Below, in pieces: positions 33,580 through 33,747 of a stretch of DNA of 64,000 bases. Source of the DNA: Escherichia coli (GTDB lineage: Bacteria > Pseudomonadota > Gammaproteobacteria > Enterobacterales > Enterobacteriaceae); NCBI RefSeq assembly GCF_003334355.1, contig NZ_QOWP01000010.1; one strand, 5' to 3'. The notes under the pieces were generated by a model. That model did no database searches. It was given only the letters and a program-made list of their open reading frames with translations, and was not told the DNA's origin. Position 1 is the stretch's first letter. Each line of letters begins with the position of its first letter. A program made the translations under genes and the position numbers.

Positions 33580-33747
33580 CATGAAGAGACAAAAACGAGA
33601 TCGCCTGGAACGGGCACATCAACGTGGTTATCAGGCCGGCATCGCCGGACGCTCAAAAGAAATGTGTCCCTATCAGACGCTGAATCAAAGGTCACAATGG
33701 CTGGGAGGCTGGCGAGAAGCCATGGCGGACAGGGTAGTAATGGCCTG
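33580..33747 (+). CDS. rmf: ribosome modulation factor Rmf (55 aa)
   Basis: not in the ORF track (under 60 aa); read from sequence: atgaagagacaaaaacgagatcgcctggaacgggcacatcaacgtggt… encodes MKRQKRDRLERAHQRGYQAGIAGRSKEMCPYQTLNQRSQWLGGWREAMADRVVMA, stop tga. Confidence 0.92.

Follow-up and report, generated by a model that had tools for sequence, protein, structure and literature searches.

The small gene rmf in a 64-kb window of Escherichia coli DNA: identity, reading frame and conserved flanking hairpins

Analysis of a stretch of 64,000 nucleotides from Escherichia coli (contig NZ_QOWP01000010.1; this whole stretch is referred to below as the window) revealed that positions 33581..33748 of the plus strand are, with virtual certainty, rmf, a single-gene unit of E. 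coli encoding the 55-residue basic protein ribosome modulation factor (Rmf); this was the best explanation of the evidence as a whole. The identity of the gene, its reading frame, purifying selection on that frame, conserved synteny and conserved hairpins on both sides of the gene were all documented here. The gene itself is already known: rmf has been on record since the early 1990s, structures of its product have been solved and all E. coli genomes have it in their annotation. No evidence against the identity of rmf was found, and the caveats touch accessory parts only.

The original prediction had placed a 168-nt rmf ORF at 33580-33747. The ORF and its assignment to Rmf stood, and the coordinates had to be moved one base to the right. 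When 33580-33747 was itself translated, the product read HEETKTRS... (HEETKTRSPGTGTS..., HEETKTRSPGTGTSTWLSGRH...), lacked a start codon and was not Rmf. The outcome that the prediction had named as speaking against it was therefore obtained to the letter, because of an off-by-one slip that moved the interval into the frame of an overlapping 65-aa ORF. The coding features at this spot were as follows.

33581..33748, plus strand: rmf coding sequence, 55 codons plus TGA, starting with ATG, product MKRQKRDRLERAHQRGYQAGIAGRSKEMCPYQTLNQRSQWLGGWREAMADRVVMA
33565..33762, plus strand: wrong-frame ORF of 65 aa, in the -1 frame relative to rmf, with its ATG inside the conserved SD1 region
33528..33695, minus strand: antisense ORF of 55 aa, the same length as rmf

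Gene identity and reading frame

The identity of the rmf product was examined by comparison with solved structures and protein families. All 55 residues were identical (55/55, 100%) to PDB chain 6h4n_v, and the 4v8g chain, 61 residues long, matched the product with 100% identity over its residues 1-55; the chains named 'Ribosome modulation factor' in 6H4N, 6H58, 9IOT and 4V8G were each identical to it at 55/55 positions. With the NCBIfam equivalog NF011162 the product scored 92.1 bits (cut-off 40; E = 1.4e-26), and the Pfam family RMF (PF04957) matched with E = 1.9e-22 in an alignment that spans positions 1-52 of the 53 in the model. Counted on the translation, the 55-aa protein contains 12 Lys/Arg versus 5 Asp/Glu, and it carries an N-terminal MKRQKRDR together with CPY and WLGGWR, motifs common to the 118 orthologues described below. 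The RefSeq rmf CDS (WP_000828648.1; two records) mapped exactly to 33581..33748. The structural, family and annotation matches thus all bore out the naming of the gene in the original prediction.

The product was also compared with relatives of Rmf. Proteins of the Rmf/CrpP fold have this small fold in common, and the broad model NF041886 (Rmf_CrpP_fam) matched the window protein with 51.1 bits versus a cut-off of 28. The CrpP model NF033696 and the phage Rmf-like model NF041887 remained below their cut-offs (19.8 versus 55 and 24.1 versus 40, respectively), and we therefore assign the protein as the chromosomal Rmf equivalog, not as CrpP or a phage Rmf-like protein.

According to RefSeq, rmf is preceded on the same strand by pqiA-pqiB-pqiC and followed by fabA (33818..34336, minus strand) and then ycbZ. 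The pqiC gene ends at 33325, so that the spacer to rmf measures 255 bp, close to the gap of about 250 bp that had been predicted. All complete E. coli genomes searched (5426 of 5426) contained the 492-bp stretch 33326..33817, annotated rmf every time; many E. coli genomes, K-12 derivatives among them, carry it with 100% identity. In E. coli K-12 the protein is identical, and the neighbours (pqiC upstream, convergent fabA downstream) and the regulatory region are the same. Aligned over the whole 64-kb window, the K-12 record showed 99.7% identity, with 192 mismatches and 3 gaps, and rmf itself was unchanged; the window thus derives from an E. coli strain other than K-12. Four 'plasmid' occurrences of the rmf region were considered as mobile copies and rejected; the matching PLSDB records (H51-H60) span 0.26-4.9 Mb and are non-mobilizable, and they are therefore evidently mislabelled chromosomes or fragments.

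The gene had been said to be hidden by the 60-aa threshold of the ORF list, and this was confirmed: at that default, the sole ORF listed over 33326..33817 was 33565..33762, in a frame different from that of rmf. Here three ORFs with lengths of 55-65 aa overlap one another; the plus strand holds two of them and the minus strand the third. ORF length by itself is uninformative at this spot, being no better than chance, and it is homology and conservation that pick out one of the three. Neither the 65-aa ORF nor the antisense 55-aa ORF matched any NCBIfam family.

Orthologues were collected with the degenerate codon pattern CPY-(8 codons)-WLGGWR, each species being represented in the scan by one genome; the pattern occurred once in the window and in none of the shuffles. 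The scan yielded 120 loci from Enterobacterales, Vibrionales, Alteromonadales, Aeromonadales and related MAGs. An ATG lay exactly 84 nt upstream of the CPY codons in 118 of them, and the products of these 118 orthologues start with MKRQKRD or, in a few cases, MRRQKRD, MNRQKRD or MKRRKRD. Colwellia, Thalassotalea and one Alteromonadaceae MAG each carried two diverged rmf paralogues on separate contigs (pairs L012/L013, L024/L025, L043/L044, L062/L063 and L073/L074); in the pairs with checkable flanks, a single copy adjoined fabA.

Because the orthologues had been chosen by a codon pattern in the rmf frame, the nine pattern codons were left out of the frame tests that follow. Column entropy across the 118 orthologues was 0.72, 0.52 and 1.54 for the first, second and third rmf codon positions, making the third the most variable. 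Within the first 150 nt, stop codons were encountered in 0/118 orthologues in the rmf frame, in 118/118 in frame +1 and in 92/118 in frame +2, the frame of the 65-aa ORF. Mean pN/pS, calculated for 24 orthologues with 75-99.5% identity to the window, was 0.22 in the rmf frame, compared with 1.24 and 1.64 in the other two, the latter being that of the 65-aa ORF. These sequence comparisons indicate that the rmf reading frame is under purifying selection across species, and the conservation check that had been proposed for the frame came out in favour of the one beginning at 33581 (pN/pS 0.22, no stops in 118 orthologues).

The same data bear on whether 33565..33762 could be a real or additional overlapping coding sequence, a reading to which we give almost no chance. 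It is the sole ORF of at least 60 aa at the rmf spot, and its ATG is invariant in 33 of 33 leaders in an alignment of the last 90 nt before rmf from the window and 32 other Enterobacterales (alignment A1). Set against this are the missing NCBIfam match, the frequent stops and high pN/pS in its frame, and an unstable length, which ranges from 2 to 79 aa among Enterobacterales when measured from that ATG. The ATG (33565..33567) lies out of frame, 16 nt 5' of the rmf ATG, and sits precisely at -16 in all but three of the 33 leaders. Its conservation is accounted for by overlap with the first of two Shine-Dalgarno candidates, SD1 (AUGAGGG), and not by a protein start; it is most simply read as part of SD1, and a role as a decoy start is conceivable. 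Judged from sequence comparison, the 65-aa ORF is effectively refuted as a conserved protein, as the original prediction had held in calling it spurious and in the wrong frame. The antisense ORF is equal in length to rmf. It is, however, without a family match and absent from the RefSeq annotation, and the excess of third-position variation agrees with the plus-strand rmf frame, so that the likelihood of its being a gene is vanishingly small. The frame beginning at 33581 is thus the one followed in the remainder of this analysis.

Candidate promoter, upstream spacer and leader RNA

The spacer between pqiC and rmf was aligned between the window and 15 other Enterobacteriaceae (16 sequences), and the leader was examined further in alignment A1. 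The features recognised were as follows.

33348..33381, plus strand: terminator-like hairpin of pqiC (pqiABC) with a run of seven T (dG -10.6, z -3.0), at the upstream end of the rmf unit
33481..33509, plus strand: candidate sigma-70 promoter, with -35 TTGACG (33481..33486), a 17-nt spacer and -10 TATTGC (33504..33509), both hexamers read by eye
33516..33538, plus strand: leader stem-loop GUGAUUGC-ACAUUUA-GUAAUCAC, located at the 5' end of rmf mRNA or overlapping it
33539..33551, plus strand: pyrimidine tract UGUUUUCUUUUCC, nearly invariant and able to pair with SD1 and SD2
33567..33579, plus strand: initiation region with two Shine-Dalgarno candidates, SD1 GAGGG (33567..33571) and SD2 GAGG (33576..33579)

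The pqiC hairpin begins 23 nt past the pqiC stop codon. In the 15 other Enterobacteriaceae a CCG...CGG clamp and the T-run were kept, and the stem sequence was almost completely different. Further downstream, the segment GCATTGAC, which contains the -35-like TTGACG, was invariant in all 16 Enterobacteriaceae. A stricter sigma-70 consensus scan of 33200..34000 called no promoter, and the candidate call rests on conservation and on the reading of the hexamers. Judged from the candidate -35/-10 pair, transcription would begin at about 33516-33518, where the leader hairpin has its first base. A single RpoD (sigma-70) promoter with a start 58 nt upstream of the ATG, corresponding to about 33523, has been published (PMC6134199). 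The two positions are about 6 nt apart, and the published one would lie within the hairpin's 5' arm. The promoter sequence was not found in the supplements of PMC6134199.

Two conserved blocks were identified 5' of the -35 element, at 33444..33486 and 33411..33433, with the sequences TAGCTCACAAATATGACA.TGGCGTGAATTTTGCGCATTGACG and TCACATTTTTTGTACAA(A/C)(T/C)GA. Both presumably serve as binding sites for transcription factors. CRP, ArcA and others have been reported to bind the pqiC-rmf spacer. No convincing match to a CRP-type site (TGTGA-N6-TCACA) was seen by eye in the conserved blocks. Among the 5426 genomes, a single one, E. coli strain 350 (L002, NZ_CP018243.1), carried an insertion in this spacer, the IS3-family element IS1203. 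Its insertion point, some 120 nt 5' of the rmf ATG (at about window position 33459), parts the distal conserved blocks from the promoter.

The leader stem-loop had a folding energy of -10.4 (z -3.3). Across the 33 Enterobacterales leaders, double changes were found in 7 of its 11 pairs, a number that was reached in 0 of 500 shuffles, and 86.5% of cells were paired, compared with 31-64% in controls in which the partner was slid. One pair occurred as GC in 20 leaders, AU in 9 and GU in 3, and the next as UA in 23, CG in 6 and UG in 2. RNAalifold independently predicted the 33516..33538 helix. The predicted partner of the adjoining pyrimidine tract was 33568..33581; there was no covariation in this pairing, and the fold of the whole leader was marginally better than that of shuffles (z = -1.8). 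A consensus scan also flagged the stem-loop together with the tract (33516..33557) as terminator-like. In the initiation region itself, ATGAGGGAAACGAGGCATG did not vary among the 16 Enterobacteriaceae and was for the most part retained in the wider set of 33 leaders. A comparable layout, with a hairpin, a T-run and ttccacgaagaggg, was observed in an Aeromonas leader (L037).

Translation of rmf has been reported to depend on two Shine-Dalgarno candidates, about 11 nt (SD1) and 2 nt (SD2) upstream of the AUG, in an initiation region that is structured and polyamine-responsive (PMC7177335). The modelled pairing of the pyrimidine tract with these sites is consistent with that structured region. 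We infer a role for the leader hairpin as an mRNA stabiliser or attenuator and an SD-masking role for the tract; if transcription starts at about 33516-33518, the stem-loop would be 5'-terminal, in keeping with the long half-life of rmf mRNA. That the stem-loop, the pyrimidine tract and the out-of-frame AUG form an Enterobacterales-wide cis-regulatory RNA element setting the stability and translation of rmf mRNA is a tentative proposal, which we regard as rather doubtful. Since the structured initiation region, the polyamine effect and the half-life have already been published, any novelty in the leader would be limited to the definition of a family and to the role of the 5' hairpin.

We also compared the leader with known RNA families. 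A cmscan search of 33000..34200 against Rfam returned no family matching the rmf leader at E <= 1. Three sub-threshold matches to Rfam leader families all fell on the hairpin downstream of the gene and were rejected as chance matches to a generic hairpin. The 'rmf' 5'-leader RNA motif of Pseudomonas, which we take to be RF01755, resembles the present leader in being a conserved structured RNA directly 5' of rmf that involves the ribosome-binding region. The enterobacterial leader, in contrast, consists of a hairpin and a pyrimidine tract and gave no match at that threshold, and it is therefore not a member of the Pseudomonas rmf family.

The hairpin between rmf and fabA

One further feature lies in the gap between the two convergent genes.

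33766..33790, both strands: hairpin GAAACCUCCGC-AUU-GCGGAGGUUUC, candidate bidirectional intrinsic terminator between convergent rmf and fabA

The hairpin, located 17 nt past the rmf stop codon and 27 nt past the fabA stop codon, has a stem of 11 bp, 7 of them GC, and a loop of 3 nt. Its folding energy was -20.2 kcal/mol for the plus strand and -20.3 kcal/mol for the minus strand, with z-scores versus shuffles of -5.0 and -4.6, respectively. A terminator scan flagged it on both strands, each of which passed the rule of at least 5 T in 8. On the fabA strand, UUUUUAAAGA (UUUUU) stands directly 3' of the stem. On the rmf strand the stem is followed by GCCUUUUGAU, in which the U-tract is interrupted by a GCC spacer before UUUU.

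The convergent arrangement of rmf and fabA with a gap of 20-400 nt was kept in 89 loci from several orders, and 78 of these 89 gaps contained a stem of 7 bp or more without interruption. In Photorhabdus (L015, L058 and L102) and Yersinia artesiana (L022), fabA was convergent with rmf at a distance of 1.1-2.1 kb, which points to an insertion between the two genes. Within Enterobacteriaceae, compensatory variants of the stem were observed (GAAGCCUCCG/CGGAGGCUUC and GAAGCCUCUGC/GCAGAGGCUUC). The stability of the hairpin, its wide conservation and the compensatory changes argue that the structure is real and under selection.

The natural reading is that the hairpin most likely ends the transcripts of both rmf and fabA. 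We weighed against it the view that the hairpin is not a terminator and serves only as a 3' stabilising stem-loop, giving protection from exonucleases, or as a protein-binding palindrome. The interrupted U-tract on the rmf side is weak, A/T runs flanked both sides in only 39 of the 78 strong hairpins, and the unusual stability of rmf mRNA (PMC8778775) would suit a stabilising element. This view nevertheless has to contend with the GC-rich stem and the UUUUU immediately 3' of it on the fabA strand, with the position of the hairpin between two convergent stop codons, and with the fact that structure, not sequence, has been kept across orders with compensatory changes; we consider it improbable. 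The two roles are in any case compatible, since a terminator hairpin can double as a 3' stabiliser. A literature search on a bidirectional rmf-fabA terminator returned irrelevant papers only and no 3'-end data. The 'strong bidirectional terminator' of the original prediction was thus upheld as regards a stable, conserved hairpin present on both strands, and transcription termination at this site, the preferred reading, stands as a probable activity.

Proposed mode of action and significance

For the ribosome binding, dimerisation, regulation and mRNA half-life of Rmf and rmf we draw on the literature for the identical sequence. Upon entry into stationary phase or starvation, rmf would be transcribed from the candidate sigma-70 promoter in the 255-bp pqiC-rmf spacer; transcription has been reported to need ppGpp and cAMP-CRP, and not RpoS (PMC6134199). 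The resulting mRNA would carry the conserved 5' stem-loop and two Shine-Dalgarno sequences maskable by the upstream pyrimidine tract, and its reported half-life of about 24 min is unusually long (PMC8778775). Transcription would most likely stop at the GC-rich hairpin 33766..33790, common to rmf and the convergent fabA. Rmf sits where the Shine-Dalgarno sequence of an mRNA meets the anti-Shine-Dalgarno of 16S rRNA (PMC10746276), and binding on the 30S subunit beside this end of the 16S rRNA would block initiation. Together with HPF, Rmf would convert 70S ribosomes into inactive dimers, first of 90S and then of 100S, in line with the report that Rmf pairs 70S ribosomes into 90S dimers and HPF turns these into stable 100S particles (PMC10746276). 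Long-form HPF of Firmicutes and other 100S-forming factors resemble Rmf in dimerising and silencing ribosomes in stationary phase (PMC10746276). Long-form HPF is, however, unrelated to it in family, and Rmf is gammaproteobacterial and requires short HPF as its partner.

Exactly two annotated coding sequences shorter than 60 aa are present in the window, rmf and cbdX (appX; 58311..58403, plus strand), which encodes the 30-aa cytochrome bd-II subunit MWYLLWFVGILLMCSLSTLVLVWLDPRLKS. The wider point of the original prediction, that an ORF track can miss real small genes and list wrong-frame ones, is correct though unremarkable. The case of rmf carries little biological weight, and its lesson is methodological. 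Coordinates read by hand need checking, as a one-base slip was enough to swap the right gene for the wrong frame, and a 60-aa cut-off hides real small genes and may promote an overlapping wrong-frame ORF in their place.
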